Assembly (NCBI GenBank): GCA_965178125.1
Contig: OZ237747.1
Span: forward strand, 1,116,001-1,180,000
Source of the DNA: Bilabrum cf. latius
Lineage: Eukaryota
Length of the DNA stretch: 64,000 nucleotides
Reading direction: 5' to 3'
A program made the position numbers and the translations under genes. The notes under the pieces are model-generated. The model saw only the letters and a program-made list of their open reading frames with translations. It had not been told where the DNA came from and did not search any database. Positions 8,819 to 64,000 of this stretch are shown here, in pieces. The stretch's first letter is position 1, and each line of letters begins with the position of its first letter.

Positions 8819-8858
8819 GGATAACTTAAGGTTGTGTTACGATGCTCAACCGCGACAT

Positions 8859-9307
8859 CACTAGCCGCCAAGGAGGAGATGACCACCCCCAAGGCAGCCT
8901 GTGTGAGCAATTGCACCATATGCACCATGAAACAGCTCGACCAGAAGGTCTTGTCATAGCGACAGCACTAGCTGCCAAGGAGGAGATGACCACCCCCAAG
9001 GCAGCCTGTATGAGCAATTGCACCATATGCACCATGAAACAGCTCGACCAGGATGTCTTGTCATAGCGACAGCACTAGCTGCCAAGGAGGCGATGACCAC
9101 CCCCAAGGCAGCCTGTGTGAGCAATTGCACCATGTGCACCATTGGACAGCTCGACCAGGATGTCTTGTCATAGCGACAGCACTAGCTGCCAAGGAGGAGA
9201 TGACCATCCCCAATGCAGCCTGTGTGAGCAATTGCACCATATGCACCATGAAACAGCTCGACCAGAAGGTCTTGTCATAGCGATAGCACTGGCGGCCAAG
9301 GAGGAGA
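8859..9307. repeat. 107-bp tandem repeat, first block (~4.2 copies)
   Basis: cactagc...aaggaggagatgaccacccccaaggcagcc units start at 8859, 8966, 9073, 9180 and 9287. Confidence 0.95.
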
Positions 9308-40239: not shown

Positions 40240-40375
40240 TCCAAGCAGCAGTGGCCTGGATGTGGGTCGCATGCTGTTGTAACTCCAGACTAATACCTAG
40301 AACTGACCTGCACGAATGTTTGGATGTAGCTAGTGGCGTCTCCATAATTACATATCGGATCCTTTGACAAATCCA

Positions 40376-42172: not shown

Positions 42173-42393
42173 CGCAAAGAGTGGGTCTGCGACATTGGAC
42201 ATTTCGCGGCTACTAGTTCCGTCGCAGGCATTTGTGCCGCCGCCAGCCGGCCGGAGGCCCGGAGCACAGCAGGGTAAGTGCGGCCATGACTTGCTAGCGA
42301 CATGCCGTTCTAGGCGCCCAGAAGGCGATAAACTTCATTGGTCGCTTCAGACTGCCACGCAACCCAATACCCAATACACACCCCAAACACTTC

Positions 42394-45300
42394 TCAACCG
42401 GGCGAGGTAGAAGGCGCCGAGCTGCCTCCCGGACTCACCCGCGTCAACGCAGGCGACCGTTGAGCAGGAGGCGATCGGCTGCCTCTGCCCCCATGCTGCC
42501 CCAGATCACCCGCGCGAAACCCGCCCTCCCCGCCCAGAGGGCTCCCGAGCGGGTCCCCTTTGCCTGCCACGCGCCGACTCAAGCCAAGATCCCCGGCACC
42601 ACCGATCGGCGGTGTCCCGCCCCTGCTCCTAGTGCCCTCGTTGTCTCCACTGCCTGCTCCCGCCCGAGTTCGCCCGTTGGTCGCCCGCTGCAGCACCCCC
42701 TCCAATGGCCTGCCCGAAGACCGCGCCGCTGGTGACTCCCTGGATCCGGAGCCGGAACCCAGCGCACGAGCGCGCCAGTAAGCAGGCGACCGGGGAGCGG
42801 GGGCGGGTGCCGGGGCTGGCGCTCGCCACCTGTCACCATCGTGCGATGCACCCGCCAGCGCAGCACCCCCGACCAAGTCTCGCCGAGACCCCGCGCGCGA
42901 CGGCGGCACGCTGCCAATGCGCCTGCGACCCTCGCCTGCACCACCGTGCAGTGCGCCCTCCAGGCCACCACCCCTGTGCCCTCGGCCCGCACCAGCCCCA
43001 GCACCCCCGCCAGCGCCAGCCCTGCCCCCGCCCCGCAGACTGGCCACTGAGTGAGACGCCACCGTCTGCACATCATCCAGGTCCCTCCGAGCTGCCCTCA
43101 CCTTGGCCTGCAGGCTGTCCACCACCTCGCCAGTGCGGCGGTTCTCCCGACCCAGCGCCTCCAGCCGAGAGAGCGCAGACTCCGCGCGAGCCGCCGCCAG
43201 CGCCTCCTCCGCCCTCCTGGCCCTGGCCCTCTGCCGCGAGGCCTCCTCCCGGGCCTGCTCCGCTTGTTCCCTGGCCGCCTGCACCTGGGCGCGGGCCTCG
43301 ATCAGCTCCTCCCTGCCCGCCCCAGCCTCCCTCGAGGAACGCTGCAGGTCCTCGGAGAGCCTCGACGAACGTTCTTCGGCGTTCGACGCGCGCAGCTCCG
43401 CGGCGCTCTTGGCTCGATCTAGCCGTTCAGTTTCCTCCCTGGCCCTGTCCAGCATGTCCTGCAGCGCCCGTGCCCGCGCCTCGGCCTCCTCTGCCCGCCG
43501 CTCCGCCGATGCCTTGGCGTCCTCTGCGGCTCCCGCCCGGCTGGCAGCGGCGCGGGCGGCGTCCTCCGCCAGCGTGCGCGCCCTGGAGGCAGACTCCCTC
43601 GCCTGTTCTGCCTCTCGGGCCCGGGCCTCGGCGGCAGCAGCGCGGGCCCCCGCGCCCCTCCCCTCCTTGGCGTTCTCTTCTGCCCTCTGCGCCCGCCTCT
43701 CGAGCTCTTGTTCCCTGGCATGCCCGCCCGCCACCTGCGACTTGAGATCCTCGTGCTCCCGCAGCGCTGCAGCCACCCTCCGCTCCGCCTCCTCCCTCCC
43801 TGTAGCCTGGGCCTCTGCCTCTGCTCTGGCCTCCTCCAGACCCCTGCGCTCCCCTCTAAGCTCGGCCTGCAGGGAATCCAGCTCCCGCTGCAGGTCCTGC
43901 GCCTTGCGTCGCTCCGCCCTGAGCTGTGCCTCGAGCCCGCTCGCCTCTTCCTGCATCCTCCTCGCCTCCTGCTGCAGCCCCTCCTTCTCCCCCTGCGCCT
44001 CCCGGAGCCGATCCAGGGCCTCCTGCCGCTCCTAGGAGGCCTGCCGTCTGGCCTGCTCGGCCCGCGAGGCGTCGTCCAGAGCCGAGTCCGCCTCCCGTCG
44101 GGCCGCCTCAGCCGCCGCGCGGGCCTCAGCAGCAGCCGCCCGCTGCTCCTGCGCCTCCGCCTCCGCCGACCTCCTGGACTCCCTCGCCTTCCGGGCGTCC
44201 GATTTCTCCGCCTCCGATGCGCCCCTCGCCTCCTCCTTCGCCTCCTCTGCCGCTTCCCGTCTGCTCCTCTCCGCCTCGAGGTCCGCTTCCAAGGCCGCCA
44301 GCGCCTCCTGCCCCGCCCTGCCCTCCTCCTCCTTCTCCTGGCGCAGGCGGTTTGCCTCTGTCTCCAGCACCCGCCGCGCGGCCTCGCTCGCCGCCAGCCG
44401 TCCCTTGAGCGCCCCCTGCCCCTCCTCCGCCTCCCGCGCCCTCTCCCAGTCCTCCGCGCTCTGCTCCGCCGCCTCTTTGGCGCGCTCCTGCAGCTCCCTG
44501 TGCCTCTCGCTCAGCTCACTCAGAGCCAGGCGCACCGCCTCCACCTCGCCCTCGGCCGCCTCCGCACGGCCTTGTTCCCTGGACGCCTCCGTTTTCTGCG
44601 CCTCGAGTGCCTCCCTGCAAGCCCTCGCGTCTTCGAGCAGCGACTGGAGCCTCTCCTGGAAGGCCTGGGGGGTGAAGAGGTCCTCGGCGAACGTGGGCTC
44701 GCTCAGGTAGGCGGGCCTGGAGCTGGGGCCAGTCAGAAGGGCGGCCGCGGTGGGGGAGCTCCCTTTGCCCCGGCTCGCGGACACCATGGTACCGTCGGCG
44801 CCGTCGTGCCCGTCCACAGAGCCGGGCCCGGGGCTGGTGCTGGGCGTCTGGAACCTGCCTCCTGCCGGTGAGCCGTCCCCAGGAGGGGAATTCCCCTGGC
44901 CCCCACCCTGGGGGGACGCCACGGACCGTGCTAGGGGCGATGAAACATGGCCCGTGCCTGCTCCAGCCCCTTGGCTCGCTCCGGCACCGGTCTTGCTCGG
45001 AGACACCGCGAGGCCGCGGGAACTGCCGCCGAGCATGCCGGTGCCGTGCACCGACGGAGCCACCCCCGAGTCGATCGCCCGACGGACCCGCCGCACTACA
45101 CCTGCACCGAGGCCCGGTGCCAGCCTAGCCAAGAATGCCTGCAACCCGTCCGCGGCTTCCAGCAGAACGGCTTCCGAGCGCACGGTGCTGCCCCCTCCTC
45201 CACCGCCCCCTAGAGCTCCAGTGCGCGGCGATGTCGATGCAAAGCCCCCCCCTGGCAGCTCTCCGCCCTCATTGCCGTCGCCGTCCGCTGCAGCATCTCC

Positions 45301-47892
45301 TGCGACCCCGGGTCTAGACTGCCCCAAGGGACTCGTCTGCATGGGCGTGCCTGCGTCTGCCAGGCTGCGCCCGCCCGCGCTGCTGCCGAGCTGCACCATC
45401 GTGCCCCCGCCCCCCTGGATCTAGGACTGGTCCGTGGGCTGGGACCGGGCGTACTCGGCAGGGTTCACCAGGAAACGGGCCAGCTCCACCACCGCCTCGC
45501 CCGCCGATTCGAGCCTCCCGCAGGCGTGCAGGGCCAGAAGCGCCACGAAACGAACCCTGTCCACGCCGGAGCGAACCTTCCTCAGCGCCCCCTCGGCCTC
45601 CGCGCGCCTCGCGTCTGCTTCCTGCAGCGCCTGCTGCTTCTCCTGCTGCAGCTGCTGGATCACGTCCTCGGACCGAAGCAGCTCCCCGCCGGGTGTCACC
45701 ACCACGCCGCCCCTCCCCTCCAGTAGGGCAGCCCGTAGCCTGGCAAGCTCCCTCCTGTACCTCTCTATGATGGTGGCCCGCGTGGTGACCTCGTTCACAC
45801 GGGCCGTGTTGACCACCCGCATGGCCCGCTCGGCGAACTGCAGCGAGGACCTCGTCTCGCCCAGGTTGCTCTCCGCTGGGCTCACCGTGACCACCACGGC
45901 CGTCTTGGCGTTGCCTCCCAGCGAGGTGGACAGGAGCCGCGTGAGCTTTGAGTCCCTGTACGGGATGTGCCTCTCTCCGGTGATGAGCTTGTTGATGACC
46001 GTGCCCAGCGTCAGCAGGCTGGTGTTGATCATGCCTCCCTCGCGCCGAGTCACCCCAGTGGCCCCGCTCTTGCTGATCCGCTCAGACCCGGCAAGGTCCA
46101 CCAGGTTGAGGCAGGAGACGCGCACGGCGCGGCCCTTGGACCCGTTGCCGCCCCTGCGCCTCCCCGCGCCTGCGTTCCCGTTGGCAGCCGGCGAAGGGGC
46201 CCCGATCTGCCCGTAACCGTTACCCAACGCCCCACGTGCGGCCGACAGCTGCTCGTCTTCCTCGTCGTCGTCCTCGTCCTCAGCCGCCCCCGACCTGCCC
46301 CCCGCGGCCCTGGATTCAATCACCATGCGGAACAGCGTGTGGCTCCGAGAGGACCGCGCATTCATCGATGTGGATGCCACCGCCCTGTGCCCCTCCCCGA
46401 TCCGCAGGATCTCCAGGATCCGCGTCGGCGTGAGCACCACCTCCTCCGTGAGACCCCGCACGTAGGGCCCCGCCACTGGGTTGTCCACGATCCTCAAGGC
46501 GCCGTTCCTCTCTCTCGCCAGGGGGTTCAGCAGGTCCCTGATCTCCTCGTTGTAGATCTCCAGGTACGACACCCGGATGAGGAATTCAAGCTGCGGCCTC
46601 TCCTGCGCCCACTAGAACACGTCGTGGGCGGCGAGGATCGTCACACCGGGCTCCGACTCCGTCCCGAGGAGCGTGTGCGTCTTCCCGCTGCCCGTCTGGC
46701 CGTAAGCGAACACGGTCGCGTTGAAGCCCTCCATGGCGCTCCGTATGATTGGCACCCCGACCGAGTCGTACACCCGTGAGGTGCGGGTGCCAGGGGCAAA
46801 CACCTGGTCAAAGGTGTGACGACGACGGCCCTCCCTATCCCCCCTCTGGCCGCGCTCCCTGAGAGTCGGCCCGTCGCACCTCCATGCGTCTGGGTCGCCC
46901 CTTGCGACCTCCATGTCGGACAGGGGCCGGACTCTGACGCCCACCACGATGTTGGTGCGCTCGGGCCCGCGCCGAGGGGAGCCAGCCTCCTGCATGGCGC
47001 TGCCTACCTGGCTGGACAGAAACAGCGCCGCGCCACCGCTGGAGTTACCGTGCAGTGCACCCGCAGACGACTGCACCCCACTCTACCCGGCCATGGGGTG
47101 CACGGGCTGATACTGCATGAGCTGTGTCTGTGTCTGTGTCTGTGTCTGCTGGCCGGGGCCTGCCCTCGCGGACCAACCGCGGGCCGCCCCGTGGCTGGCT
47201 GCAGGAGACCACATCACCTGGGGAACTGCCGCCTCGGCTGGTCCGCGTGACGAGTGTGGACGCAAAGCCGCTGTGCTGCCGGCCTCGGGGCTGCCGAGTA
47301 GCTGCCATCCCGGGGTCCCATCCGCTGTCCGTACGCTGGATCTACTGCTAGAAGGGTATTTCGAAGCTGCACCTGCCGCGGGGGGCGACAGGATGGCGCC
47401 CGGAGAGGCAGACACGAAGCCTGCTCGAATGGTGGAGGCCCGCGCTCTTGCGGTGCGCGGTGACGGCGGAATGCTCTCGTTGTGGGCAAGAAGCGCGGTG
47501 CGAGACGCGCCTCTGGATGATGAGCGGCCGGTTTGCACTGGGGGCGGCGGTGCAGCCAATTCGTGCCTCGTTTGTAGGGCAGAGGCAGTTGACGCCGCTT
47601 GCCTACTAGGCGGCATGGACGTCAGTCCGGCCTAATCGGTGCCGATCCCGTGAGAAGGGTCCCATACAGCAGCTAACGCTGCATCATTTGCTTCCAGGTC
47701 TGCTCTCATGTTCGCAAGCTCTCGCTAGACTTCGGGGTGGCGAGCAGCAACGGGTTCTGCCTCCTGGATCCCATGCTTTCGCCTAACCCGCCGGGCACGC
47801 TGGCCTTGGGCATCGCGAGAATGATCAGAGCTCTTCTGCGAGCTTTCAGTTCTCCAGGCATCTCCAGATCGCTGCGGGGCATCCGGATGCAT
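42394..47892 (-). CDS. Kinesin (kinesin-7/CENP-E-like) with an N-terminal extension and long coiled coil, ~1830 aa
   Basis: Motifs VGVRVRP, AYGQTGSGKT, SYLEIYNE, NARSSRSH, LVDLAGSE, HIPYRDSKLT. One frame runs from ATG 47892 to TGA 42396-42394 with 6 TAGs (e.g. 47083, 46612, 45421, 44032). The start could be a downstream ATG. Confidence 0.9.
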
Positions 47893-48313
47893 AAGGAATC
47901 ACTTTCAGAGACAGTGGGTCTACGCCACCGTCGTTCGTGAGCTATATATGCAGCTTTGATCACGAAAATGAAAAAAACTAGTTTTTTATTTAAAAAAACA
48001 AAAGAACGTGGTAAAGATCCTTACGTCAGCCGGTAATGCTCGAAATTTTGGTCTTGAAGATTCTGTGTGCTTGGCGAACCTGCCCAGGCTGCCTTGCGAC
48101 GACATGCACAACAGAACCGAGGTGCGATCAGCACAGCCAAGCAGCTGTAAATTTACCTGGCTGGCAAACAGCGACTATTGTCAAGCTGGCTTGCCCGATC
48201 ATGTCCGCCTGAACCCAACGGCAAGGCTGCGAATCGTGACGAGCTCGCGTGTGCTGCACGAATTTGGACTTGAACCAACCTACCGCACCGGATTCCAAAC
48301 AAGAGCGCATCGC

Positions 48314-49819
48314 TTATAGCGTGTTTACCAGTTTTAGACGAGGGCCATCGGTCCCAACGCTCTCGCTTCCTTCAATGACCCTTCCGCCAGCCCCAGACCC
48401 AGCACTACCCCCATCACTACCCCCATCACCAGCGCCAGCGCCAGCGCCCTTCCTCTCCTGAGCCAGCAGCGCAGCACCCTCCTCCTTGGACAGACACTTG
48501 CTCCTCAGGCCCCAGCTCCCATCGATCACAGCCTGGGCAAGGCACTGGGCCAGCCGCGGGGCCCGGCTGGAGGGGTGCATGGGCACCGGGCCCATGCCCC
48601 AGGGGCCCGCTTCATCCATTCCATACGGAGGCGGGGCTGTGCTAGGGGCTGTACTAGGGGCTGTGCTGGGGGCTGTGCTGGGGGCTGTACTGGGGACATC
48701 GCTGCTGCCAGTGCCAGCATTGGCCAATGAGGCTGAACCCCCTGCAACACCTGACGTGCCATCCTCGGCCCCGCCTGCTGGCTCCACGGGTGGATCCACG
48801 GGGAGATCCATAGATGGTTTCCAGGCGATGAATACGTGACAGCCGCGCATCACACCACTGGGCTATGCCTCGATGAGATCTGCAGCTGGCGATTTGCCTA
48901 CCGGCGCGCACATGCTAGGGCTAGCAGGTTCCTGCGCGCCTCCAGTATCATCATGTGCGGCAGAATCTGGTTCCTTGGACGCAGATGGAGGAGCAGGTAG
49001 TTTGCTCCAGCCCGCCACGGGCAAGAATTCCAGCCGGGCGCTCCAGCAGAACAGGTTCTGCTCGAGGAGGCGGTCTTCGAGCTCCAAGGCACCCCCGCGG
49101 CACGGATCTACTATCAGAGCCGTTCCAGAGGGACCCAAGCTTGCGCTGATAGACCTTGCAAGGGGTTTCGCAAATGACGTGAGGTAGAGGATGTCTGTGC
49201 CAAGCACAAGGTCGAAGCCACTGGAGGATTCTTCAGTTCTCGTGTAACTGGACCCAGCGCCCGGTGAAACAATGTCAGGCCCTGCACTACTCTTTGGCAG
49301 TGCTATACTAGCAGTGAAGCGTAACATGGACTCCACATCTTCGTTCTTTGATATATTTGCCTTCAAAGCGGTCAGGTCGCCTGACGCTCGAACTCCAGCC
49401 AGAGGCGAAGCAAACTCCTCATCTGTAAGACGGGTAGGTATTCCTAGCTTGGATGCATTACGAGACAACAATGTTGTGGCGTCGTCTGCAATGTCTGTTG
49501 CAACGACGTGCGCCCCACATCGGGCAGCTACTAGTGAAGGGAGGCCCAGACCGCACCCGTATTCCGCAACCTACTTTCCTTTCAGTTCCGTTGAAATTGA
49601 CAATAGCAACTAAGACGTCGGAAAACAGCTTGCCCATGTGAATGCCCACAGGTCACACTGATCTGATCTTCGCGTGCTTTCAGAGCGAGGCTTTTCGATC
49701 GTGTCCACTGTCAACCGTAGCTGTCTATGCTATGTTTCTGGCGCACATAGCGACTCAATGCATGTATGCTTTGCTTCCAATGGTGGCAGTGACGGTAGAC
49801 TTTCATTCTTTGCGGCCAT
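48314..49819 (-). CDS. Seven-beta-strand lysine methyltransferase (METTL21/Methyltransf_16-like)
   Basis: W..., GK*VAEYGCGLGLPSL, VVATD, FDLVLGTDILY. 4 TAGs; ATG 49819; TAA stop. Confidence 0.85.
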
Positions 49820-49900
49820 ATCAAGATGGGACCTCAGTTGCAGTTGGCCTCCGCAGGCTCCGCAGATCAAAAGGATACCTGCGCGGCGCCAGCTCCGGCA

Positions 49901-52900
49901 TCAAGACGATGCATCGGGCCTCGCGGATCCGTCCTCCTTTTGCGCGGATTCTATCCATCGCGCACCGATCCACCCAGGCCTACCTGGGACAGCGCTGTGC
50001 CAGTAATCCGCCCCGGCAGCGGCAGCGTACTCGAACCGCTTCTACCAGGTCCCCGCGTGCTCCTGGTCCTCGCGTTGGCGGGCCAAAGCTCCATCTCCTG
50101 CCTGCCCATTGCCACCACCGCCCTCACCCCCCGCCTCACATGGCGCCTCCACGCTCCTGTCCTCCTTTCGCATCGCAGCCAGCTCGCTCAAACCAACTTC
50201 CCGCATCGCCTACTTCTCCCTGCGAGCGCGCTCTGCAGCCGCACTCATCACACCGCGCTGGGCCTCATCGGCCGCCTCGCGCTGCCTCCTCACCATGAGG
50301 GCACTCAGCTGACCCGCGTCCGGCCACCGGCCCCTGTCCACGGCCTCTTGCATCAGGGCGAGGTGCGCCGCGCGGTCGGGATACGCGTGCTGGCAGGCAT
50401 CCACCGCGCGCAGGCGGGCCAGCGCGCGGGCGGGGAGGCCCCTCGGATCCGATGGCAGGGGAGCTCGGGCTGCTGTGGCTGCGGGAGCTGGCGAGCCGTC
50501 GGAGCCCGCCCCGCTGGCAGCTGGCACTACACCACCGTGCGATGCAGCCTGCTTCAGCCACTCCGTGGCCAAAGTCACGCTGACAACCGGACACACGGCC
50601 TGCTCGGAGCGGTACAACCAGAGCCCTCGACGGGTGCATTGCACTGTCGTGCTGTCCGATAGACTGCCGTCAGCACCACTGGACTCCTGCGGTGCACGGC
50701 CCACCACTACCTCCACGGCAACGGAGCCGCCCTCGCTCTCGATGGCCTTGAGGGGGTCCTCCTGCGCAGCCGATGCGTCACTGGGCTTGACTCCGCTATT
50801 GCCTCCCTCTTGGCTGTGTTCTTCTGCTTTGCCACGATTTGCGCTGGACACCGGCTTGCCCTCAGCTGCATCCGCGGAACCGGCCGCAGAACCATCGCCA
50901 ACACCCGCACTACCGCCCTCCCCCTTGGTTTGCGAACCAGCAGAGGCCTATGCACCAGCGGTCCCTTCTCCACCCTCCTGGTCCTACTCCCCTGCAACGG
51001 GCAGCACCCGCCCCACTGCATCCGGTGGCAGCGACCAAGCGCTCTCACCGGTGCCCTCATGCTGGTACCATACTGCACCGCTCGTGGCGTCGTACAGCTC
51101 CACCCACACGTCACCTGCCGCCTCTCCACCCCCACCCACGCCTTCAAAGCGACGCAGCGCCACGGCACGAGCTGCCATGTCCGTTGAGTACGACTGCTGG
51201 AACCAATCACCACCCGCCTCCTAACCCTGACCCTGGCCCTGACCCTGACCCTGGCCCTGCCATGCTCCATCCCCCTGAGCCTCGCCGGCAGCACCCTCTA
51301 CTTCAAATCCGCTGCCTGCAGGTGGCATCCACCTGTACTCTCCGCTCTGCTCGTGCCAGTAGTAGTACGCGCCCGCATCATCGCTCCAACCACGCCACCA
51401 CCCGCTCCCAGGCGCCCCTGGCTGCAGCGCGAATTCATAGCCAGTCACGCTGCCAAGGTCCTGCGGTATGCCCGCGTACGATTGAGCCTACGACTGGGCA
51501 TGAGACTGGTCGTTGGGCTGCTCATGCTCAGCAGCAGCGATAGCCTCGGCTTTAGCACCAGATGCGCTGTTCGATACGTCGGGCTTGCCTTCGTCCTCAC
51601 TCTCGTCACCACCGTCCTTGTCGTTGTTGCCCCGCTCCTGCTTGCCGCTTTCCTCACGCTCCTGCCTCTCTCTCTCCGCCTTGTCTCGCTTCCGCTTCGC
51701 GCACTGCTCGATCCAGGCCAGCCGATCCGCCTCCTGGTGCTCCACGATGCCTCGGGGCAGCCAGCCTCCCCACACGCGGTACTCGAGCGGAACCGTCCAT
51801 TTGCTGGCCTGCGTGACCGGGTTGTAAAAGTACCACGCGGTTGGGTCATCCTCGGCTCCAGACCCAACGGCGGCGCCAGGCACCTGCACGCACACCCACG
51901 GGTTGCCCCCGCGCGCCACAGCTGCCCGTACCACGGTCCCGCGCCAGCCCGCCTGCAGCGCCGCCGCTGCCGCCGCCCGTCTCGTTCTCCACCGCTTCCA
52001 CCGCAGGCGCCTCTGTTCCTTGGCCCAGCCCAGCGTGCGCCCCTGCAGCGGGGCCACTTCCCGCTGCGCCGCCCGCAGCCTCCTGCTGGCCTCGTTGGAC
52101 TGCTCCTGGATCCCGTCCAGCTTGAGCCGCAGGACGCGCCGCTTCCCCTCCATCCCTTTCAGTGACTGCACGAGGCGCTCCCTGAGCCAGGGCACGGGAT
52201 ACCTCTGCGAGGAGCCAGAGATCTTGTCGCTGTCCACTTCCTGGGCCCTCACGGATGACAGCGCCTCGAGCTCGGCCTCCCACTCCTTCTCCTTCTCTTC
52301 CAGCTGGCCCAGCTCCTCCTCTGCTTCTGCTTTCTCCTTCTGCAGCTTCTCCAGCTTTGCGCCCAGCACCTCCACCACGGCCTTCATGGCTGCCTCGCCC
52401 TCCAGCTGCATGGGCGCATCATCCCCGGCCTCCCTGCGCGCCTTGGCCTGCCGGATCGCCTCCTGTTCCGCCTCCAGGTCGCGCTTGTGCTGCGCGAGGG
52501 CGGCCGCCTCATCGGCGCCCAGCACGCCCCTCCACACCTTCTGCATGCCGATGGCCGCCGCGTGCTTGCGCTGCTACAGGTCGCGGGCGGCCTGCAGCAC
52601 TGCCACGAAGCCACGGGCCTGGTACACCCGCCACCGGGTCTGGATCCGCATGGCAGCGTCTTCTTCCACCATCAAAAGGTGCGCCCAGGCCCGTCTCACT
52701 GCAACCTGCTGCCTCCCCAGCGCGCCCCGCCACGTCCTCTGGATGTCCGTGGCGGCCTTCTTGCGCCTCAGTCGGTACTTTTCGTCCCACAGCCTGGCAG
52801 CGATCCCACGGGCCACCATGCACCGCCAGCAGCACTAGATCCGAACGGCGGCCGCCCTCCGCCTGGCCGCCTCCTCCCTTGCCAGCCGAAGCGCGTGCAT

Positions 52901-55900
52901 GATGCCCCGGGCCTGCCTTCTTTGCCAGGCCCACTGCAGCCGCTGGGCCGCACGGTGCTCGGCGATCTTTCGGGCCGCAGCTCTGGACGCCTCGTCCCGC
53001 AGCAGGTGCATCCTCCAGCGCGCGAGACACGCCCTGAGTCCCGCCTGCAGCACCCGCGCCGCGACGTCCCTCCTTTGCTCCTCTCGGAGTGCCGCAGCGG
53101 CCGCCTCGGCCTTGCGTCGCTGCATACCGTCGGCCACCTTGCGGCCCTCGTGCCCCCGCCACAGCTTCTGCAGCTTGAGCGCCGCCCTGTTCTGGCGCCT
53201 CAGCTCCCTTGCCTCTCTTCTCCGGGCCTTCTCCTCCCAGGCTGCCTTCTGCTCTATCCACGCACGCTGGATCCGCAGGGCGCTCGAGTTCAGGAGCAGG
53301 CGCCTGCGGATGCGCGAGACACGGCCCCTGGCCAGCGCCCCCCTGTGCCTGCTCTGCAGCCGGAGGACGGCCCACCGCCCGGCCTTTTCGGACCGCAGCC
53401 GGTGGGCCAGGGCCTGTGCCATCTTCATCCTCCACCAGTTCTGGACCCTCATGGCCCTGAAGTGCTGCTGCTTGCGCTCCTCCCACAGGTACTGCCTGTG
53501 CTTCTCGTCCGCCAGCGGCTCGAGGCCGTACCACTGCCGCCCCAGCCGAGCGAACGGGTGGTCCTCGGCCAGGTCTGCCAGGAAGTGACGCTGCACGAGC
53601 TTGCACCTGTCCAGCACGAGAGAGGTCAGCTGCGAGTAGGCCAGCACGAGCGAGCGGACCCCGCGCGGCTCCAACCGCGGGCTGCCGCTGAGGTCGAGGA
53701 GGCGGAGCCTGCCGAGAGCACCCGGCTTAAGTGAGGGCTTGGGCCGGTGCTGGGGAGCTGGAGAGCCCGTCTCGCCAGCCCCCGCATCCTCGTCCTCCTC
53801 GTCGTCGGAGAAACCATCATCCCAGCCCGCCCGCTCCGTTCTCTCGTCCCGTCGCGCGGCCGCCTCCACGATGGCCGCCCCTCGCACGGCCTCGTCGTCC
53901 TGTGCCCACCACTCCCCCGCCGCGGCCCGCTCGTCCCGCAGCAGCGACTCCCTGAGGGCGGCGGCCCGGCGCAGCGCGCCCCGCTCCGATGCCCCCATGG
54001 TGCGGCGGGTGGCCTGGGCGACGTCGGCGCCTTCCAACGTCGCGATGAGCAGCTCCGATCGAGCGATGATGCCTCGCGCGGCGTCGCCGGCGGGCGCCTC
54101 GTCCTCACCCTCAGCCCCTGCTGCGCCTCGCCTCGCCCGCTGCCTGCGCTTCCTGGCCCGCTTGGCCCGCTTCAGGGAAAGCACCCCGAGACCTGGGCGA
54201 GCGAGTTCCATGGCCAGCTCGGTGGAGACTGCGTCGGGCAGCCGCCCCAGCCTCAGTTCGCGAAGGTTCGCCACGGCTGCCTCTGCCTCCGGCCTCGCAA
54301 ACCATGCGAGCCCAGACGCCTTGAGCCCCAGGCAGCCGCTGAGGTCCAGTCTCACGAGCGACCCGCACTCTGTGGCCAGCCGCCTAGGAGCCGTGGATCC
54401 AGAAACCCTCGCGCAGTCGGATAGATCGAGCCTCTCGAGGCAATCGGACAGCAGGTCCACAACAGCCGACACGGTGCCCTCGGTCAGCTGCTTGCACGAC
54501 GGCAGCAGGAGCTCGTTGATCCGCCTGCACCCGTGAGCTAGGTCACGCACCCCTGCATCTGTCACAAAGGAGCAGCCACGCATGGACAGCCGCCTCAGCC
54601 CCGGGTTGTATGAGGCCAGGCCCCTGAGGACCTTGTCGGACACGTTCGGCGTCATGTCCAGCTCAACGTCCTCCAGCTTCCTGCAGCACTTGACCACCTC
54701 GCACACGCCCTCGTCCATCACCTTCTTGAGCCGGTTCAGCCGGAGTGTCCTGAGCTCCCAGAGTCCCCCTGCGATGCATCGCATGCCCTTGTCCTCCACC
54801 TGCCTGCACTCGCTGAGGTCGAGCACCTGCAGCTCGCGGCACCGCAGCCCGACCGCTCGCAGGCCGACGTGGGTGATCTCAGGAAGCCCGATGACTTCAA
54901 GTCTCCGCAGACCGGTGCACGCACGGGCGATGGCCCACAGACCCGCGTCCGTCACGGGCTTGCACCCGGGCGCGCCAAGCTTAAGCCCGGTCAGCGCGGG
55001 GGCCACCTCGGCGATCTCTTGGAGGGCGACGTCGGTCACCAGCGCGCCCGTTTCCGCGGATTGCTCCGCCAGGTCTATCTCGGACCGGAGGGACTGCAGG
55101 TCATCCGACAGGAATCCCCGCAGCAGAGTGGGCAGCCCGCTCTTGCGCTGCGACACCGCCCCCGGGGGTGCGCTGCTAGCGGATCCCCTGCCGGGCCCGC
55201 CCGCCATCGCCTCTGCCTCGAGCGAGCCGGGCAGAGGTGGCTCCCGCAAGGCCCGCAGGTCTCCCGTGCGGCCCAGACCCTGCGACTGTGGCGTTCCTGG
55301 TGCATCGGCAGAGGCGGCTCTCCTCCCCGGCGCGAGCAGCAGTGGCAAGGGCACGTCCTGTGCCCAATCCGGCACCGGTGGCTCGGCCGCCGCCGCCACT
55401 CGGTCTCGCACGCTGGACGGCAGCCGTGACGTGGCTGCGAGTCGCTTGGCGGAAGATGCCGCGGCTGCTTGGGCCGGGTCCGATGCCTTGCTGGGGTCGG
55501 CGGCCCTGTCCCTCTGCAAGATGACCGCGCGCGCTGTGCGCCTGACTTCTGCACCGGCGAGTCGCTGGGTGCGCACCACGCCCGAGCGGTCTGCGAGGGG
55601 CACGCCAGCGCCCGTCAGGTCTGGCGCATCAAGAGGGTCAAGCTGTGCCAGTGGGTGTGTCTCCGGGATCCCCAGCCTTGCTGCCCTGCGACGGACTGCG
55701 GGGTCCGCTGGCGGAGACACGCCGGGCGGGACATACCGCGTAGTGGACGTTCTTGATGCCGCGTGCTTTGCTTTCTTGCGCCTGCTCCGGCCCTTGGATC
55801 CAACCTGCCGCTCCACGGCTGCCATGATCTCCGTGGCACCAGAGGCAGCCAACGCGGCGGCGGCATGGCCACCGAGTGCCTTTCCGGCGGGCGTAAGGGT

Positions 55901-56380
55901 GTGGAGCAAAGAGCCACCAGGCGCGGCCTTAAGTCGCGCTTCTGTTAATGCATGCAAAACGGCCGAATCGGTCCCAAGCCCAAGGCCACCGCCTGGCGGG
56001 GACCCAGCCGCGCGGCTAGCAGCTTCATGTGAAGACTCCCACGCCTGCGCCTGCCCACTGCGCTCCATGGCGAATGCCTCTCTGCCAGCTGTCATGTCTA
56101 ATTGACGTTTCGAATGATGGCTCGGAGCTTGTCCACGCTGAGACCGCATAGATGCCGCTGGCCGGCCATCAGAATCGCGTTGCATGTGAGACGGGAGCTG
56201 TGGGAGCGAAACAGCCCCCATCTGCCGCATGCTGGAGTTCAGAAGCCCATATGCATGCGTTTCTTTGGTTTCTTCGAGGGCGTTGGAACCCGCGTGCCCC
56301 GCCACGCCCCTAGACTTGAACTGCACGGACGATCCGTTGAACGAGCTGCTTCGGTCCCTTTTCGATGATTTGCGCATCAA
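49901..56380 (-). CDS. ~2159-aa protein: FBXL-type LRRs + multiple IQ motifs + coiled coil + 3 WW domains
   Basis: LxxLxLxxC LRRs; IQ motifs (IQRAW, IQRTWRG, IQTRWR, I*CCWR); WW-like WYFYNPVTQASKW, YYYWHEQSGEYRWMPP, VWYQHEGTGESAWSLP. 8 TAGs in one frame; TGA stop. Confidence 0.85.
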
Positions 56381-56586
56381 ATTCTTAGGAGGTCACTAAC
56401 AGTGCAACAGTAATTGTGCACTCTAAAGATACAAGCAACAAGTATTGAAAAAGTCACTTCGGACGCTCGAAAAGTGGGATATGGTGTGTCCGCTGATGTG
56501 ACGATTTGGTTGCTGGGCAGGGCCCCGGGTTTAGTGAGCACGACAACGCCACAATGCGACCAAGGGGCTGGCGCGTACCCGTAGCA

Positions 56587-59118
56587 TCACCCCTGCAGCA
56601 ACAACTTCACGCACTCATCGTGACCCCCCAGACGAGCCGCCTCCAACGGACCCACCAACCGTCGCACCCCAGATGAACCGTCACCTCCACCGACCACCAC
56701 CTCGCCCTTCTTCTCCAGGCCACCAGCCAGTCGCCCCAGCCGCAGACGCTTTCCCAGCTCCAGAGGCCTCCCTTCACTTGCAGCCCTAAACACCATGTCA
56801 GCGTCGCGCTTAGCCTCATGCGCCCGACGACATGCAAGTAAATGACTCACGCGCACATCCCGATCGTGCCGCAAAGCATCGACGCAGTGGTCGGCCACGG
56901 CTGCCCCCAGCACCTCCCGCCCCATCGCCTGCATGCCCCGCACCGCGTCCATGCTCCCACCAGCGCGCAGGGCCATGGCGGGATATCCCACATACCGACA
57001 GTGCTGCAGCTCCTTCACGCTGTCAGACATGAATTCGCGATGGCAGTCGAAGTCTTTCACCATGAGGCTGCTTGCATTCATGCCGGCCTCGTCCTGCACG
57101 TCTCCCACGGCCAGCAGCAGCGCCACCACAGATGCCACCAGGTCACGCCGCCCCGGCGCACGTGCCTGGTCGGCCAGTTGCTCGCACGCGCCTCGGATGG
57201 CCCCTGCCGCGTACCGAGCCACAGCCATTGGATCTAGGTCCTCTTTCTGGGTCACCATGCGGAGCAGCACAGAGGCGCGGCCGCAGACATCGGGCAAACT
57301 CCCTGTTGCGGGCGGTGATGAGTCGGCCGCTCCACCTTCATCTCTGGCATTACATGCATGGCCCACTACTCCCGCACCACTGGTACGTACTTGGGGCGCT
57401 TCATCCAACCATTGCTGCGCGATGCGGCCCCGATACTACGCACTCGCAGCAACTTTGGCATCGATGGGATGCAGCCGGAACTTGAGGCTGGAGCCGCACC
57501 AGATGCTTGGCAAGCTGTCGTAGACCATGCCAGTGGTTTCTCTGGACCCGAGACCAAATGCATCGCGGAGAGGCTCAAACTGGGCTTTCTACTCGGCGTT
57601 GTCACCACTCTTGTTTAGGCGCATGCCCAGCAGGCTGGCGTTGGATATGAGCCCCTTCGACAGCTCTTCCATGGCTAGTCCGAATCGGTCCGAATACATT
57701 ACACCCATCTCTTGCAGCGCTGATTTGCCTGAACTACTTAGTGCAAGCCCAAGTGCTTTGGACGCTGATACGTCGAATCTGCCCCCCCACTGCTTCAGTC
57801 TCAGCATCGACCTGCTCCCAGCGAGGCCCTCAATCCATCGCGGTGATGCTGATTCTTTGCGAGCTCTGGCCTGCATGTTGAGCTCCACACTCTGCAGACT
57901 CACACATCCCTCGATGATACGACTCGTTGCTAGTTGGCATGCGTCGGGCACGCTTCCTGTGATCAGCCTTAGCTCCCGAACCGAGTGGTTCTTACCCATC
58001 GAGTCTGCTAGCGCCCCCAGCAGCACATCCTAGTCCTTGAACGCCTTGACCTCCAGCTTGCGGAGTGTCTGGTTGGTCTCTAGAGATCGGCAGAACGCCT
58101 TGGTGCCGTCTCCTAGCGCATCGCGAAAGGAAAACTTGAGCGATCGCAGCGTGGTGTTGCCAGCCAGGGCAGCTCCGATCTCGCCGGCAGACTCATCGGT
58201 AAGCCCTCCCTTAATGCGGAGGTGCCTGAGGGTTTTGCTGTGCTGTAGCACACGAGCAAATCCACGTGCCGTATTGTCGCCGTTCGTGCGCAGGATAGCA
58301 TGCTCTAAGCCAGTGTTGCGCTCCAAACCCTCCAGCATTGCCAGGCACCCCGCGTCTGTGGCTTCGACCCCTTGAATCGACAGCTCCCGCAGGGTACAGT
58401 TTGCCGCAAGCGCTTCGCCAATCTTGCGACCAGCTGCATCGTCAATGTACTACTAGTCTATGTCATCCTCCTCGCTGTGCTCCATAATCAGGCGTGATAG
58501 GGACGTGTTTACGATCACTGCGTCGAAGACCGCCAGCAAGATTGCTTTCGTAGCCCTGGTGTACACGATAAACTCGCGCAGGCTCGGTTTTGAGGCTAGG
58601 AGCTGTCGGATAGTGCCTTGCGCGGCTTCTGGTGACTGCTGCTGCAGCAGCCACCACAGGCCGTCGTCGAGAACACGGAGTGGAGGGCCGAACTTGCTTA
58701 GAACGGCTTCCATGAGGATATCAGCGCCCTTCGCGCTCATTTCAATATCACAGATACTTAACGCGTGTAGCTGCGGGCTGTCCTCGGAGCAAAGCCAAGC
58801 CGCAAATCGCCGCATTGCGTCTAGATCGCTCCCAAATACTCCGTCCGGCATACTGCAGCGCAATACAAGCATTTTGACGGACTTGTGCACCGAGAGAGCA
58901 TTACACAAATGGGGCAACATCTCAATTGTTGGATAAGCTACCCTTAGGCTCTGCAAATTTGGTGATGCCGTGATGAGCTCTACAGTGCCAGCCACGCAGT
59001 GCTCCCCGTCACTCTGACAGTCGACGGAAGCCGATACCACTGAAGGGTCATGTCTTAGCGCTGTTTTATATTCATTGAAGTCAATTGAGCCACTCGTGAA
59101 ATCGCGATACGCTTGCAT
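56587..59118 (-). CDS. RNI-like (NLRC3-type) LRR protein with a C-terminal ankyrin-like repeat, ~843 aa
   Basis: Repeats of the ALAGNTTLRSL type; PLEAARLGGHDECVKLLL. Four ORFs are joined by 5 TAGs; TGA stop. Confidence 0.8.
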
Positions 59119-59374
59119 TGTAGCTGCAAGTGGATACAGAAGACTTGAGTCGCACGAAATGAGGACGAGAACAACAACTTCAAGTTGAACCAATTTCCGC
59201 CGTGCGCGGTTTGCACACCACGCCAGATTGAACATGACTACCAACTTGCAAACGGAAGAGCGCAAGGTCTGGGCGCATGTCGATGAATTCCTTGCGCAGA
59301 AGAAATTCTAGCGGTTGGATAAACCATTGCAATTACGAATTCGACGTGCGCTATCGAGCATCAAGAAGGCTGCA

Positions 59375-62135
59375 TCACATTCCCGCGGGACCCCCTTGCG
59401 CGCCTCCAGCCCCCACTGGCTTGGCTCCCGGCCTCCTCTCTTCCTCCGCCTTGGCACTGGCCTTGATCGCAGACACGCGGGACCAGTCCACCCCGCGGCC
59501 AGCCACGGCGGAGAAGGCGGCCTGCATCTCCGGGATCGTCTCGGCCGCTTGCAGGGCCCGAGTGGCCTCAACCGCGTCGGGACCTGGTCCACCCGCCTTG
59601 GCTGCTTCCTCGGCGTCAGCGGGCGGCAGCTGCGGGATCACCCCGCCGTCGGCCTGGTGCCTCCACCGGTAGGCCAGCACCACCTGCTCAAGGTCACCGG
59701 CCTGGGGACCCCCGAACTGCCGCGCGATCTCGAGGGCCCTGGCCCACCGGAACAGACGAACGTTCATCTTCACGGCCCTGTACAGCAGCGGCGGGCTAGC
59801 CTGCAAAAGCACCCTCTCGGCCTCGTCGGGCCTCCTCCTCAGCAGTGCCATCTCGGCGGCCTGGCCCTCCCTCGAGGGCACCTCCTTCACGTGCTGCACG
59901 AAGTGCAGCTTGTCTGTCATGCGGAGTGCAGCCAGGGACACCTCGGCGGAGTCCAAGTGGGCCGCGTCGAGGGCCATGGCGGCCAGCGCGGCCCATAGGC
60001 AGTCCTCGCCCACGAACCGGCACAGCCGCACCGCATGCTCCCAGTTGGAGGCCTGGCACAGCCGGTGCAGTGCCGCGGTGTGCCGCCCCGCCGACTTGGC
60101 CACCATGGCCCCGTCCCCTTTCTCTGCCACCGCGAGGGCACCCCCGAAGGACCGGATCCGAGGGAGGGCTCCCCACTCGGCAGCGGGTCGCACCTCCCGC
60201 GCGGCCTCGCACAGCGTCCTATCGGTGAAGACAGCCGAAGGGGCAAGCCACGCGGCCAGCTGGCCGTCTCCCGCGGCCGCCAGCGCGTCTGCGTCATCGG
60301 CCCAAGCGCACGAGTCGCACATGCCCTGCAGCCTCTGGGGGTCTGGCGCCTGGAGGGGGGTGATCCAGAGGTCTCCGTTGGCGTCGAGGAGGGCGGCCCT
60401 GCGCCTAGCCAGCGTGTCGCTGAAGGTGGAGAGGGCCACCTGCTTCAGGGAACAAGTGTGGGAATAAGATGCGAGGGAGCGGCCGGTCCTAGTGTCGAAC
60501 ACACGGACCACCTTCGGGTCGCCCCCGTCGATCATCAGCAGCGCGTCACGGGCCAGCGACAACGTGGACGTGTCTAGCGTGTCGGCGCGCATGCCCGACT
60601 GGCGGGGCCTGCACAGCAGACGGCCGTCGTACGAGAAAATCGCCACGGTACCCGCAACGTCCACGGAGCAGAAATGGGCCCTGTCCAGCAGCAGCAGACG
60701 GGGCGGGGAAGATACTTCCACCGTGTGCGGGGTGGTGAAATCCGCCCCGGCCAGCTTGTACACGTGCAGGTGCGTGCGCGTGCCCACGACCATGTGGCCG
60801 TGCTGCATGGCCAGCGCGGTCACCCTGCCCCTGACCTCCACCATGTCACCGTCCAGGTCGCCCCCCGCCCCTGCCCCGCTGCCTGCTCCCGAGGAGGGGC
60901 CCCCGCCCATCCCGCTCGCAGCCGCAGTCCCGGCCGCGGCCGTCCCTTCCCCCGAGAAGACCTTGAGCGTGCTCCTGTCCACCAGCTCGGCAGAAGAGCC
61001 TCCGTCCGAGGCGGAGAGGCCGAGCACCGACGCAGCCACCGCGCGGCCACCAGCGCCTGCACCCGCGAGCGTGGTGCCGTCCGCGGACCAGCTCAGCTGC
61101 AGCAAAGAGCCCGCTGAGTGCACGTGCCTCGAGCGAGACCAGCCCAGCCGGTCGCAGAAACGGAGCGAGTCGTGCGAAGCGGCGGCGAACGTGGCACCGG
61201 AAGGGGACCAGGCGACCGCGGTCACGGCGTGTGGGAGGGCAGCCGAGGCGAAGAGCTGGCGCCCCGTGTCATCCCAGACCCTGTACTTGCCGTCCTCGCC
61301 CCCCGTCACCACCATGCCATGCACCGAGCTCCAGTCGGCGCACAGGCAGGCGCCGGCGTGCGCCTTCCACGTGGTGCGAGTCCGATCCGATCCCTTGGAT
61401 CGGATCACCACGTCACTGCCGGTGCACCAGAGCAACCGCTACCCGTCTGCGCTCCACCTAACTGCCCTCACGGGCCCGCTGGCCTGCTCTAGCTGTGAGC
61501 GGAGCATGCCCATCCGGCTCCAGAGCTTCACGCTGCCGTCCTCCCCGCCCGTTGCAACGTCCTCGCCGCTTGAAGACCAGGCGACCGCGGTCACGGCGCC
61601 CCGGCCCTTAGAGGACGCCTCGAAACGGCGCTCCTCCCTCCCCGTGCTGCTGTCAATCATACGAACAGATCCTGCGAGTACAGTCGGCGGAAACGCTGCC
61701 GTCGGCTTGCTGGTGGTCGGCTTGATTCAAGCCAGGACAGAGCATAGCTAAAGCGCAGCGGAAACTCACCATCCGTGCACGCAACTACGACTTGCGTCGA
61801 TGGGGTGCCCCTCCCAGTCACGACCCATCCAGCGGCAGCGACGGGAGCTGCCAGCTTGCAAACCTCTGCCGATGGGTCTCCTCCTTCACCCAGCGCCGTC
61901 AGCTCCGGGGTTCGTTTCATGGTAAGATCATCTGACATAGTCAAAAGCTATCCATCTGGCTACCATACACATGCGGTCACCGTGTCCTTGTCTGCGAAAT
62001 GCCATTCGGATCGAGCACAATCTACACCGATTCGTCCAGGGCAAGGGCAACACAGTAGCAGGAATCATGAGCAAGATGTAGCCCATGCATGGTCTTACGC
62101 AAGGACCTAGGAAGTTCGTTTACCTCCAATCGCAT
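59375..62135 (-). CDS. IFT80: Intraflagellar transport protein 80 (WD40 + alpha-solenoid)
   Basis: Spliced N-terminus MRLEVNELPRSLHKDTVTACVW*PDG*LLTMSDD. Motifs TGGEDGSVKLWSRMGMLRS, TGGEDGKYRVWD, WEHAVRLCRF, LYRAVKMNVRLFRWARALE. Introns at 62098-61992 and 61769-61672; 3 TAGs. Confidence 0.92.
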
Positions 62136-62276
62136 GGTTCAGCCCGCTAAGCAGTGCCACACGCACAGCTCCGAGCCGTTGCTGAGGCGCCGCGCATTCC
62201 AAAGCGGAACCAATCGTCAACAACTTGCTCCGGTTCTACGACCACGGACACCTCTGTATCCGACTGCCCTTGTCTC
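62136..62276. promoter_or_regulatory. Putative bidirectional promoter between IFT80 and the PRP38B-like gene
   Basis: Only 141 bp separate the divergent ATGs at 62135 and 62277. Confidence 0.5.
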
Positions 62277-64000
62277 ATGTCTAGAAGCTGTCTTTTGCGC
62301 AAAGAACGAATAGCAGCTAAGGCTGGGCGGCTAGGCGTCGATCCCTTCGAGCTTGCCGCCCGAGACAGCCAGGAAGCATCCGGGCCGCCTCCGGAGGACG
62401 CGCTGCCATTTTCCGGCAATCAGTCGAGCTTCAACGTAGAGCCTGCTCTGGCTGGGGCAATTGTACAGCATCGAGCATTCAGTCACAGCGCTGCGCGACT
62501 GGAGTCTTTGGAGGATGTTTGCGCAACTGCGGCTCTCTGCCCACATTTCGATCCGTGGGAGCCTGGGACGACTGCTCGAACACCTTCGAGGTTTTTCTGT
62601 CTTCTGTTCAAGCTCATGCTAATGCGACCGACCAAAGATCAGCTGCTTCGAATCCTGCAGAGCTCAATTGCCGGACCACAGGACGCCGTCTTGGAGGAGC
62701 AGACCGAGGACACGAGTGCGGCCGCGGCCCTGGCAAAGTGCGGCCAGCCCCAGCACAAGCCGGGGGCATCGTGCGCCCCGCGCATCCTTGCCATGCTGCT
62801 GCTTCGGTACTGCGCCGACCAGCGCACCCTGTGGTCCTGGCTGCGCCCCTTCCTGGACGACGCACAGCCAGTCCGAGCAGCCGGCGGCATGGACCCCGGG
62901 CTGAGGCTCAAGGCAGCACCCGATTCCCTGCCTGGGCCATCGGGACCCGACGCCGTGGAGGCCTGCAGATCGCTGTGGCGGGCCCAGTCGGATTCTCGGG
63001 CCGCCCCCACGGTGGGGGCAGTGGCCAGGCACCTCCTGCTGGCCCCTCGCTTCCAGGACGCGATGCTGCCGCGGCTGGCAGTTCCGGTATAGCGACGGGT
63101 TGAGGCGCTGCTGGGCCTGCACGCCATGTCCAGGCGGTGCATGGGCCGGGCCTGGGAGCTCCGGTCCAAGTGGGTACCCGGCGCGGCGGTGCGGTGGCAC
63201 GCGGGAGGCGAGGAGCAGACCCCGGGGGCAGAGGGGGGCATCGGCGCGGGCAAGGCCGCAGATGGTGGGGCGGGGTGGAAAGAAGGGGCGGTGAAGAGGG
63301 GGGCCACGACCGAGGAGGCCTGCGGCAGGCGCTGCGTGCTGTGGCTGACGGAGCGAGGGGGTGGCATAGGCGCTGGTGGGGGTGCGGGCGGGGCCGGTGC
63401 AAGTCGAGATGCGATGGTGGACATGGGGTACCTGGACATGGCTGGGGGGTTCGGTGCTGCGGCGGGCGGGGAGGGCGGTAGCTCCCTGCCACCTGGGCTG
63501 CGGCTGCCCGTCCTCTCTGAGCTATCCGGGACTGGCGGGAGTGTAGGTGCATCCAGGGGTGGGGCGGGAGGGCTCAAGTATGCGGGGGGGAGGAGCTCAA
63601 GTGGTAGTGGGGCGCGTTCGTCAGGGGCCCGGGGATACGGCCGTGGTGGCGGTGGCGGCGCGGGGGTGCGAGGGGGTGGCACTCGACGCAAGGGGAAGGG
63701 ACAGCAAGGCAGCATGGCGGCGATGATGCTGGAGGAGGAGGAAGAGGAGGACGAGGAAGAGGAGAAGGAAGAAGATGGGGAATACTATGAAGGCGTGGGT
63801 GGGTACGAGGATGAGGGGGAAGGCGCGTGGGAAGCGGATGGAGGCGATGATGAGGCACAGGGGCAAGAGGAAACAGCCAGCGGTGCTGGTGATCGTAGTG
63901 TGACGATTGAAATTAGCAGCTCTGGCCAGGTGGAGGGCCAGCAAGACGCCTCTGGCGCCACGAGCAGTGCCGAGGAGCCTGCCGATGCTGGGCCCGCTGG
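62277..64000 (+). CDS. PRP38 family splicing factor (PRPF38B-like), 3'-partial, with a Gly-rich/acidic tail
   Basis: LPFSGNQSSFNV, HFDPWE, FFCLLFKL, LWSWLRPFLDD, LPRLAVPV*RRV. The frame stays open past TAG 63090 to the window end. Confidence 0.85.

Follow-up and report, generated by a model that had tools for sequence, protein, structure and literature searches.

Evidence for a nuclear genetic code with UAG as a sense codon, most likely for glutamine

Introduction

Glutamine is encoded by both UAA and UAG in code 6, which occurs in many ciliates and hexamitid diplomonads, among others. Nuclear code changes are rare, and those in which UAG is reassigned while UAA is kept as a stop are rarer still, being confined to a handful of lineages in the accounts available. 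Among these is Iotanema spirale (Fornicata), in which, according to the available text of PMC5304391, UAG encodes glutamine, UAA and UGA serve as stops and UAA is the primary terminator. The available text of PMC11687900 describes the same change of UAG only to glutamine in the ciliates Hartmannula sinica, Trochilia petrani and Protocruzia tuzeti. Other residues have been reported too: leucine in the rhizarian exLh and in uncultured phyllopharyngean ciliates, and serine in Scotinosphaera (PMC5304391, PMC11687900; available parts). Here, we analyzed a stretch of 64,000 nucleotides deposited under Bilabrum cf. latius (GenBank contig OZ237747.1, positions 1,116,001 to 1,180,000, forward strand), hereafter the window and numbered from its first letter, in which protein-coding genes are crossed by in-frame TAG codons. 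That TAG is a sense codon in these genes is very likely. We further regard it as likely that the window belongs to a nuclear genome with UAG most likely read as glutamine, UGA as the main stop and UAA as a rarer one. Which residue it stands for is less firmly established than that it is sense.

The comparison with described systems, as far as their available accounts go, runs as follows. Like Iotanema spirale, the window combines a reassignment of UAG alone, glutamine as the best reading, genes ended by UAA or UGA and a non-ciliate flagellate as host; unlike Iotanema, its nearest named relatives are stramenopiles, hence another supergroup, TGA ends 12 of 14 open reading frames (ORFs), and the genome is rich in guanine and cytosine (GC). 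With Hartmannula, Trochilia and Protocruzia it shares the widespread occurrence of in-frame UAG in genes and, most likely, the codon change, of independent origin in each. Those organisms, however, are ciliates whose codes were read from hundreds to thousands of Pfam-aligned codons with Codetta, whereas about a dozen informative sites are available here. UAG most likely stands for glutamine as in code 6 lineages, but TAA is absent in frame from 14,469 counted codons and ends two ORFs. As in the codes of exLh, the phyllopharyngeans and Scotinosphaera, UAG is uncoupled from UAA; leucine and serine, in contrast, fit the homolog columns, the IQ motif and the ortholog codons of the present case poorly. 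The pattern proposed here, UAG alone read as glutamine, is that of NCBI table 15.

Results

In-frame TAG codons lie within conserved genes

The case for a sense codon is carried by homology. Conserved domains of a kinesin, of IFT80 and of a BBE-like oxidase run across TAG codons with the reading frame unchanged. A first-pass annotation of positions 42394-64000 had proposed, from the letters of the DNA and their ORFs, that conserved genes are interrupted by TAG without frameshift; the kinesin and IFT80 domain matches bear this out, and the oxidase, which lies just outside that region, adds a third gene. The genes concerned are as follows.

40376..42334, minus strand: secreted FAD-linked BBE-like oxidase, ending at TAA; TAGs at 42068, 41870 (in STGHHxD), 41807, 41765, 41315 and 41279
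42394..47898, minus strand: kinesin-7 (CENP-E-like), 1834 codons, ending at TGA; TAGs at 47725, 47632, 47083, 46612 (motor domain), 45421 and 44032
48314..49900, minus strand: class I methyltransferase (METTL21-like), ending at TAA; TAGs at 49730, 49610, 49571 and 48863
49901..56392, minus strand: large leucine-rich-repeat (LRR)/IQ-motif/WW protein, 2163 codons, ending at TGA; TAGs at 52835 (glutamine position in one IQ motif), 52574, 51488, 51221 (closing a GQ repeat), 50984, 50948, 50210 and 50042
56587..59637, minus strand: leucine-rich-repeat-like gene, ending at TGA; TAGs at 59308, 58453 and 58450 (a tandem pair), 58030, 57589 and 57436
59375..62135, minus strand: IFT80, exons 62135-62099 (with the ATG), 61991-61769 and 61670-59375 (ending at TGA); TAGs at 61960, 61948 and 61439
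61992-62098 and 61671-61768, minus strand: introns of IFT80, GT..AG, with joints in X5, X6 and X7 contigs (see below)
62151..63998, plus strand: PRP38-family gene (Pfam PRP38, 2.2e-16), running off the window end; TAG at 63090

The kinesin matched Pfam PF00225 (1.9e-99) over residues 322-532, with the TAG at residue 429, and its best match among solved structures, human CENP-E (4.1e-77), has a glutamine opposite this codon. IFT80 matched PF23335 (2.3e-61), and its alignment with Chlamydomonas IFT80 (E 1.8e-147) passes over a TAG. In the oxidase, Pfam FAD_binding_4 (1.7e-20; residues 120-257) spans three TAGs and is accompanied by BBE. All TAG sites quoted in the first-pass annotation proved real and in frame: HDVFxWAQE of the kinesin (46612-46614, minus), WSADGxRLL of IFT80 (61439-61441, minus), VWxPDGxLL of IFT80 exon 2 (61960-61962 and 61948-61950, minus), the IQ motif AAVRIxCCWR (52835-52837, minus), LPRLAVPVxRR of PRP38 (63090-63092, plus), GQGQGQGQGQGx (51221-51223, minus) and MPQQGxPxIxW (16145, 16151 and 16157, plus).

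In total, 15 long ORFs contain 98 in-frame TAGs, with 2 more in IFT80 exon 2, in agreement with the earlier estimate of about 90-100 for the window; part of this total lies upstream of likely start codons or in orphan ORFs, so that coding is not proven for all. Codons were counted in 14 ORFs (14,469 codons), leaving aside the tandem-repeat ORF at 5933-8836. These hold 92 in-frame TAGs and not a single internal TGA or TAA. In the two remaining frames of the 15 ORFs, the combined counts are 519 TGA, 201 TAG and 102 TAA. TAG is thus tolerated in frame at roughly the background rate, while TGA and TAA are excluded. TAG makes up 92 of the 792 presumed glutamine codons (11.6%) of the counted ORFs, and it is more frequent in the orphan ORFs of lower GC content.

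ORF lengths tell a similar story with less force. Under the standard code, the window has 2 ORFs of at least 800 amino acids; making TAG a sense codon raises this number to 11, compared with 3 for TAA and 6 for TGA. Across 100 sequences simulated with a second-order Markov model, run in 4-kb blocks, ORFs of this size averaged 0.05 with TAG as sense (maximum 1) and 2.33 with TGA as sense (maximum 6). The reversed, uncomplemented sequence weighs against reading much into this result, for it also has long ORFs once TAG is sense (4 of at least 800 amino acids; the longest 1485 amino acids), so that ORF length alone is weak evidence in such GC-rich DNA. The reversed sequence is a poor null and the Markov simulations were used in its place. 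It is homology, not ORF length, that carries the sense-codon case.

TAG codons are kept in spliced contigs and in a relative

Alternatively, TAG could still be a stop, with the in-frame copies representing pseudogene lesions or sequencing and assembly errors, or being removed ahead of translation through editing, splicing or, at a few sites, programmed readthrough. The full query stretch is present in four runs; another three, which come from two different studies, contain 50-72% of it. Contigs of one run with the full stretch (X1) and of the three runs from the other studies (X5, X6 and X7) were aligned to positions 44001-64000. The X1 contigs are colinear with the window. The X5, X6 and X7 contigs each skip 61671-61768 (98 nucleotides) and 61992-62098 (107 nucleotides), both of which are bounded by GT..AG on the minus strand. 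With both gaps taken out, three exons form one complete IFT80 frame from an ATG (MRLEVNELP...), which stands just after an in-frame TGA. These contigs look like spliced transcripts, their RNA nature being inferred from the spliced joints.

Over 60961-61670 and 61769-61991, the X5-X7 contigs show 0 differences from the window and keep all three IFT80 TAGs; base differences are listed for none of them anywhere. X5 pieces with 0 differences cover 15 TAGs, among them two contigs over the kinesin (45248-46679 and 46656-47871) and one over the LRR-like gene (56681-59116), upstream of which TAG 59308 lies and may be noncoding. The unchanged TAGs in spliced contigs argue against assembly error, editing and splicing-out. 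The first-pass annotation had pointed to reads and RNA as the place to confirm the TAGs and exclude editing, and in these contigs, whose RNA status is guessed, they are indeed kept.

A relative provides a second line of evidence. The scan of metagenomes yielded a single contig, L001 (5186 bp), which at high identity encodes residues 1-311 of the query; scans of genome contigs and viral contigs gave no further relatives. Compared with IFT80 of the window, 325 of 384 aligned codons encode the identical amino acid (85%), but only 151 are identical as codons, so synonymous sites have largely diverged. At the three positions of the window's IFT80 TAGs, L001 has TAG, CAG and CAG. It also carries a 1049-codon ORF with TPR_12 repeats (2.4e-43) and 13 in-frame TAGs of its own, which makes the code a property of a lineage and not of one assembly.

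Several points favor a TAG that still stops, or at least weaken the case against it. The RNA status of the runs is only guessed, none being recorded as RNA and X5 being marked as 'probably DNA'; all runs are represented by contigs, which drop rare or minority variants; and the X5 piece at 51149-56453, with four TAGs, has 1 difference whose position is not listed. Against a stop stand the facts that about 100 lesions would all be TAG and never TGA or TAA, over 15 ORFs and with no frameshift, that identical TAGs occur in contigs of four runs from three studies, including GT..AG-spliced ones and, for X5-X7, without listed differences, and that one TAG has stayed TAG in L001 despite largely diverged synonymous sites. 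We consider a retained stop function exceedingly improbable. The earlier proposal of a sense codon, most likely glutamine, in place of pseudogenization is thus supported by both the spliced contigs and the relative, with its own TAGs and its CAG swaps.

TGA and TAA end the genes

Among the 14 complete ORFs, 12 end at TGA and 2, the oxidase and the methyltransferase, at TAA. The oxidase TAA falls where its homologs end in the alignment. In this one 64-kb window, UAA and UGA behave as terminators, being present at ORF ends and absent inside frames, which points to a change of UAG alone and not to code 6. The earlier claim that TAG is required as a stop by none of the genes agrees with the 12 TGA and 2 TAA ends, yet it is unprovable from ORFs that were themselves defined with TAG as sense. 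Some TAGs may still terminate translation, for example the one five codons before the TGA of the VWA gene.

Code 6 would differ from this picture in that TAA, too, would be glutamine and merely rare in a GC-rich genome. It draws on the general pattern that UAA and UAG usually change meaning together, as stated in the available text of PMC5304391. Within the window, frames stay open for more than 40 further codons after both terminal TAAs, and freeing TAA raises the number of ORFs of at least 1000 amino acids from 1 to 3. Frames remain open just as long, however, after several of the terminal TGAs. CAA and CAG occur 160 and 540 times in the counted ORFs; if TAA served as a glutamine codon in the way that CAA does, arithmetic from this ratio predicts about 27 in-frame TAAs. 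None was observed, against 92 TAGs in the same 14,469 codons, although TAA is not rare out of frame (102 copies). Together with the oxidase TAA that coincides with the end of its homologs, these counts make code 6 very unlikely.

Glutamine as the probable residue

Given that TAG is sense, glutamine is the best reading and a likely one, to judge from alignments, an internal repeat and the relative. The strongest column is that of the oxidase TAG at 41870, in the STGHHxD motif: among 35 homologs, it holds Q30 M1 V1 T1 P1 F1 and no glutamate. The column of the GPGxSF motif (41765) reads N28 Q6 L1 in the same homologs. Complementarily, the LRR/IQ protein has ten IQ-like motifs, of which nine have CAG at the defining glutamine and one has TAG. 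Pfam IQ (PF00612) matches the TAG motif only when TAG is translated as glutamine, with 18.3 bits (E 0.0019), below the 20.3-bit cut-off; at this motif, no match was obtained with E, K, L, Y, W, S, R, N or X. The earlier observation that the IQ-motif TAG sits at the defining glutamine therefore stands as a strong one. The third source is L001, with CAG at two of the three IFT80 sites, and the fourth is the glutamine of human CENP-E opposite the kinesin TAG. Summed over ten distant-homolog columns, the IQ paralogs and L001, the log-likelihood is -31.8 for glutamine, -38.8 for glutamate and -39.8 for alanine.

Other supports named in the first-pass annotation fared less well. The PRP38B-like TAG was said to align with glutamine: the LPRIPVP motif is real and the best match has Q, but the column is variable (Q8 of 48). 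The GQ repeat that seemed to need CAG does consist, at the DNA level, of six GGN-CAG units followed by GGT-TAG, which shows a mutational origin and not a decoding. The same holds more widely in that TAGs in tandem repeats of the window are single variants against CAG, AAG or GAG units, one mutational event each, and hence uninformative on the residue. Both the glutamine-rich MPQQG context and the TAG at the predicted mature N terminus of the esterase are present, but neither points to any residue.

Other results weigh against glutamine or leave it undistinguished. Taken alone, the ten distant-homolog columns put Q first and E a narrow second; the posterior for Q varies with the pseudocount, over a range of 0.46-0.89, and leaving out the STGHHxD column gives the order E, then A, then Q. 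Variable columns dominate the remaining sites. In the oxidase, residue 35 has E9 K5 D5 R3 A3 S3 N2 Q2, residue 122 has S23 R4 E3 Q2 and residue 298 has A29 in a poorly aligned stretch; one further oxidase TAG lies within an insert. IFT80 residue 77 has D4 N2 Q1 E1 S1 P1, and its two exon 2 columns have T6 V1 N1 and E4 D2 V1 G1. The kinesin column reads R15 Q9 S8 K8 D8 E6 A6 H6 over 76 distinct contexts, and that of PRP38 reads E13 A13 Q8 M7 T3 L2 G1 H1 over the 48 of 150 matches that cover the site, the best of them with Q. A comparison of PRP38 with solved structures gave no usable match covering the TAG, and the methyltransferase columns against solved structures are variable as well (R, S, K, V and T, N).

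Generic Pfam profiles follow the same trend. With the seven TAGs in the TPR region of L001 translated in turn, TPR_12 scored 185.6 bits for K, 182.1 for R, 179.6 for E and 177.5 for S, followed by X (165.2), A (165.0), L (160.6) and Q (154.7). TPR_10 on L001 gave 133.9 bits for K, 131.0 for both E and R and 130.0 for Q, while FAD_binding_4 varied between 76.8 and 80.0 across residues. In the kinesin and PRP38 profiles, Q comes top by at most 0.5 bit. Scores in these last three profiles differ by at most 3.2 bits between residues, which is uninformative. Generic profiles, then, do not favor glutamine and are decisive only at the IQ motif. The ortholog evidence, moreover, consists of two sites in one gene.

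Glutamate is a serious rival, TGA and TAA being stops under this reading as well. UAR codons encode glutamate in Blastocrithidia and in peritrich ciliates. Here, glutamate is best over the distant-homolog columns once STGHHxD is left out, leads or shares the lead at oxidase residue 35 (E9), the second IFT80 exon 2 site (E4 D2) and PRP38 (E13), and outscores glutamine in TPR_12 on the seven L001 TAGs (179.6 versus 154.7 bits). On visual inspection, four of the seven TAG positions are mostly occupied by E in the internal TPR repeats of L001. Yet glutamate is absent from the columns of STGHHxD (Q 30 of 35) and GPGxSF (Q6, E0). An IE pair would break the IQ consensus of the other nine repeats, and the Pfam IQ match is lost with TAG read as E. 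The 85%-identical ortholog in L001 has CAG, and not GAG or GAA, at both non-TAG sites, and the long acidic runs of the kinesin and PRP38 proteins contain no TAG. On balance, we judge glutamate improbable.

A third group of readings takes TAG as lysine, serine, leucine, tyrosine, tryptophan or alanine, or as read ambiguously. Lysine heads both TPR_12 and TPR_10, alanine and serine come third and fourth in column likelihood, and leucine and serine are meanings of UAG in other eukaryotes (PMC11687900, available part). In the STGHHxD column, however, the six residues appear as singletons at most, they misfit both the IQ motif and the CAG of the ortholog, and their total log-likelihood is at least 8 units below that of glutamine. 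Readings of this kind are highly improbable, and glutamine remains the preferred meaning of TAG.

Further genes and features of the window

GC content is 55-59% over the first 40 kb of the window and 60-70% beyond. Pfam also detected a VWA protein outside the region of the first-pass annotation. The closest homologs of the oxidase (35-47% identity) are patchily distributed, with unnamed metagenome and transcriptome proteins beside those of Diplonema japonicum and of Brachionus rotifers; gene transfer, or contamination of the data sets concerned, may account for it.

The methyltransferase gave weak Pfam matches (best 9.6e-5) and matched METTL21A (5.8e-7) and 7oas (3.5e-7) among solved structures. 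Its ORF follows the TGA of the LRR/IQ gene (49901-49903) in the same frame, with an ATG 27 codons downstream. The shared frame is probably a coincidence; readthrough of the TGA would fuse the two ORFs. Pfam matches of the LRR/IQ/WW protein, to LRR_6 and WW, are both weak. The LRR-like gene at 56587..59637 is open only with TAG as sense and had no Pfam match. Part of it recurs as an inverted duplication (39803-40240 versus 57022-56586; 87.6% identity over 445 bases) that includes no TAG site. The copy at 39803-40240 corresponds to the 3' end of the LRR-like gene and, because it has an in-frame TAA, is probably a dead fragment. The X1 contigs break or fold back at 56.6-57.0 kb.

IFT80 (ATG at 62135-62133, minus strand) and the PRP38 ORF (plus strand, open from 62151) stand head to head and nearly touch, implying that the promoter region they share is very short. 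In L001, the gene upstream of IFT80 (2-3151) is instead the TPR_12 protein, on the same strand, so gene order around IFT80 is not conserved. The TPR_12 ORF has three TAGs within five codons (ACxMDxxLL).

A carboxylesterase at 32704-34640 needs at least two frame changes, probably introns, to join a signal-peptide exon, a part with FKGIRYAQPP...GQSAGGA and the C-terminal half; both of its TAGs are in the first exon. Positions 1-32110 hold five orphan ORFs on the plus strand, of 750-1670 codons, with long tandem peptide repeats and no Pfam match. TAG density is higher in such ORFs (17 in 863 codons at 1553-4141; 16 in 1670 at 22138-27147). The C terminus ...WWG(M/L)MAD(T/I)CGVWIYGV is common to those at 22138-27147 and 29858-32110. 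The tandem-repeat array at 5800-9060, at most a putative coding region and of ambiguous frame, is open in overlapping minus-strand frames (5812-7044, 5933-8836, 6045-8825 and 7045-9060).

Placement of the host

The best match of IFT80, at 48% identity, is a cluster that includes proteins of Cafeteria roenbergensis/burkhardae. In a tree of 28 kinesin-7 motor domains, hand-picked from the 120 matches listed, the clade that includes the window protein has 98/98 support and comprises 13 rows, of which only those of the labyrinthulomycete Hondaea and the ochrophyte Triparma carry names. It excludes plants, fungi and an insect. Few named organisms stand behind the cluster matches, namely Cafeteria, Baffinella and Diplonema. 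The high GC content and the few, short introns recall, we presume, Cafeteria. From these two genes, the IFT80 match and the kinesin tree, the host is probably a GC-rich, intron-poor flagellate of the stramenopiles.

Discussion

The reading proposed here implies that cytoplasmic ribosomes would take UAG as an amino acid, most likely glutamine. The genome-wide scope claimed in the first-pass annotation is an extrapolation from the window. By analogy with other lineages that have this change, UAG would be decoded by a glutamine transfer RNA (tRNA) with a CUA anticodon or by a wobbling tRNA-Gln, and in eRF1 the recognition of UAG would be weakened or gone, with that of UAA and UGA preserved. The decoding machinery itself was not seen, which is a weak point of the proposal: no tRNA gene was detected within the 64-kb window or in L001, no Rfam family matched within the window, and eRF1 is not among the window's genes.

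A change of UAG alone to glutamine is a rare but already known kind of code change, and it is the supergroup that is probably without a case on record. Full-text searches, which did not extend to subscription journals and supplementary files, turned up no nuclear code change described for stramenopiles or bicosoecids. We therefore put forward tentatively, at somewhat less than an even chance, that this is the first nuclear stop reassignment in stramenopiles: an independent change of UAG only to glutamine in GC-rich, Cafeteria-like heterotrophic flagellates, with at least two members (the source of the window and that of L001) and TGA as the main terminator. The DNA and the transcript-like data are public, in several runs of 2025; their depositors may already know the code, and an account may be in preparation.

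For the host and its relatives, gene callers that apply the standard code would fragment most genes, and existing protein predictions are therefore likely to be wrong. If true, the reassignment would add a further independent case bearing on how eRF1 can separate recognition of UAG from that of UAA, and it would be especially useful for coming from a supergroup with no reported case and from a high-GC genome that terminates mostly at UGA.

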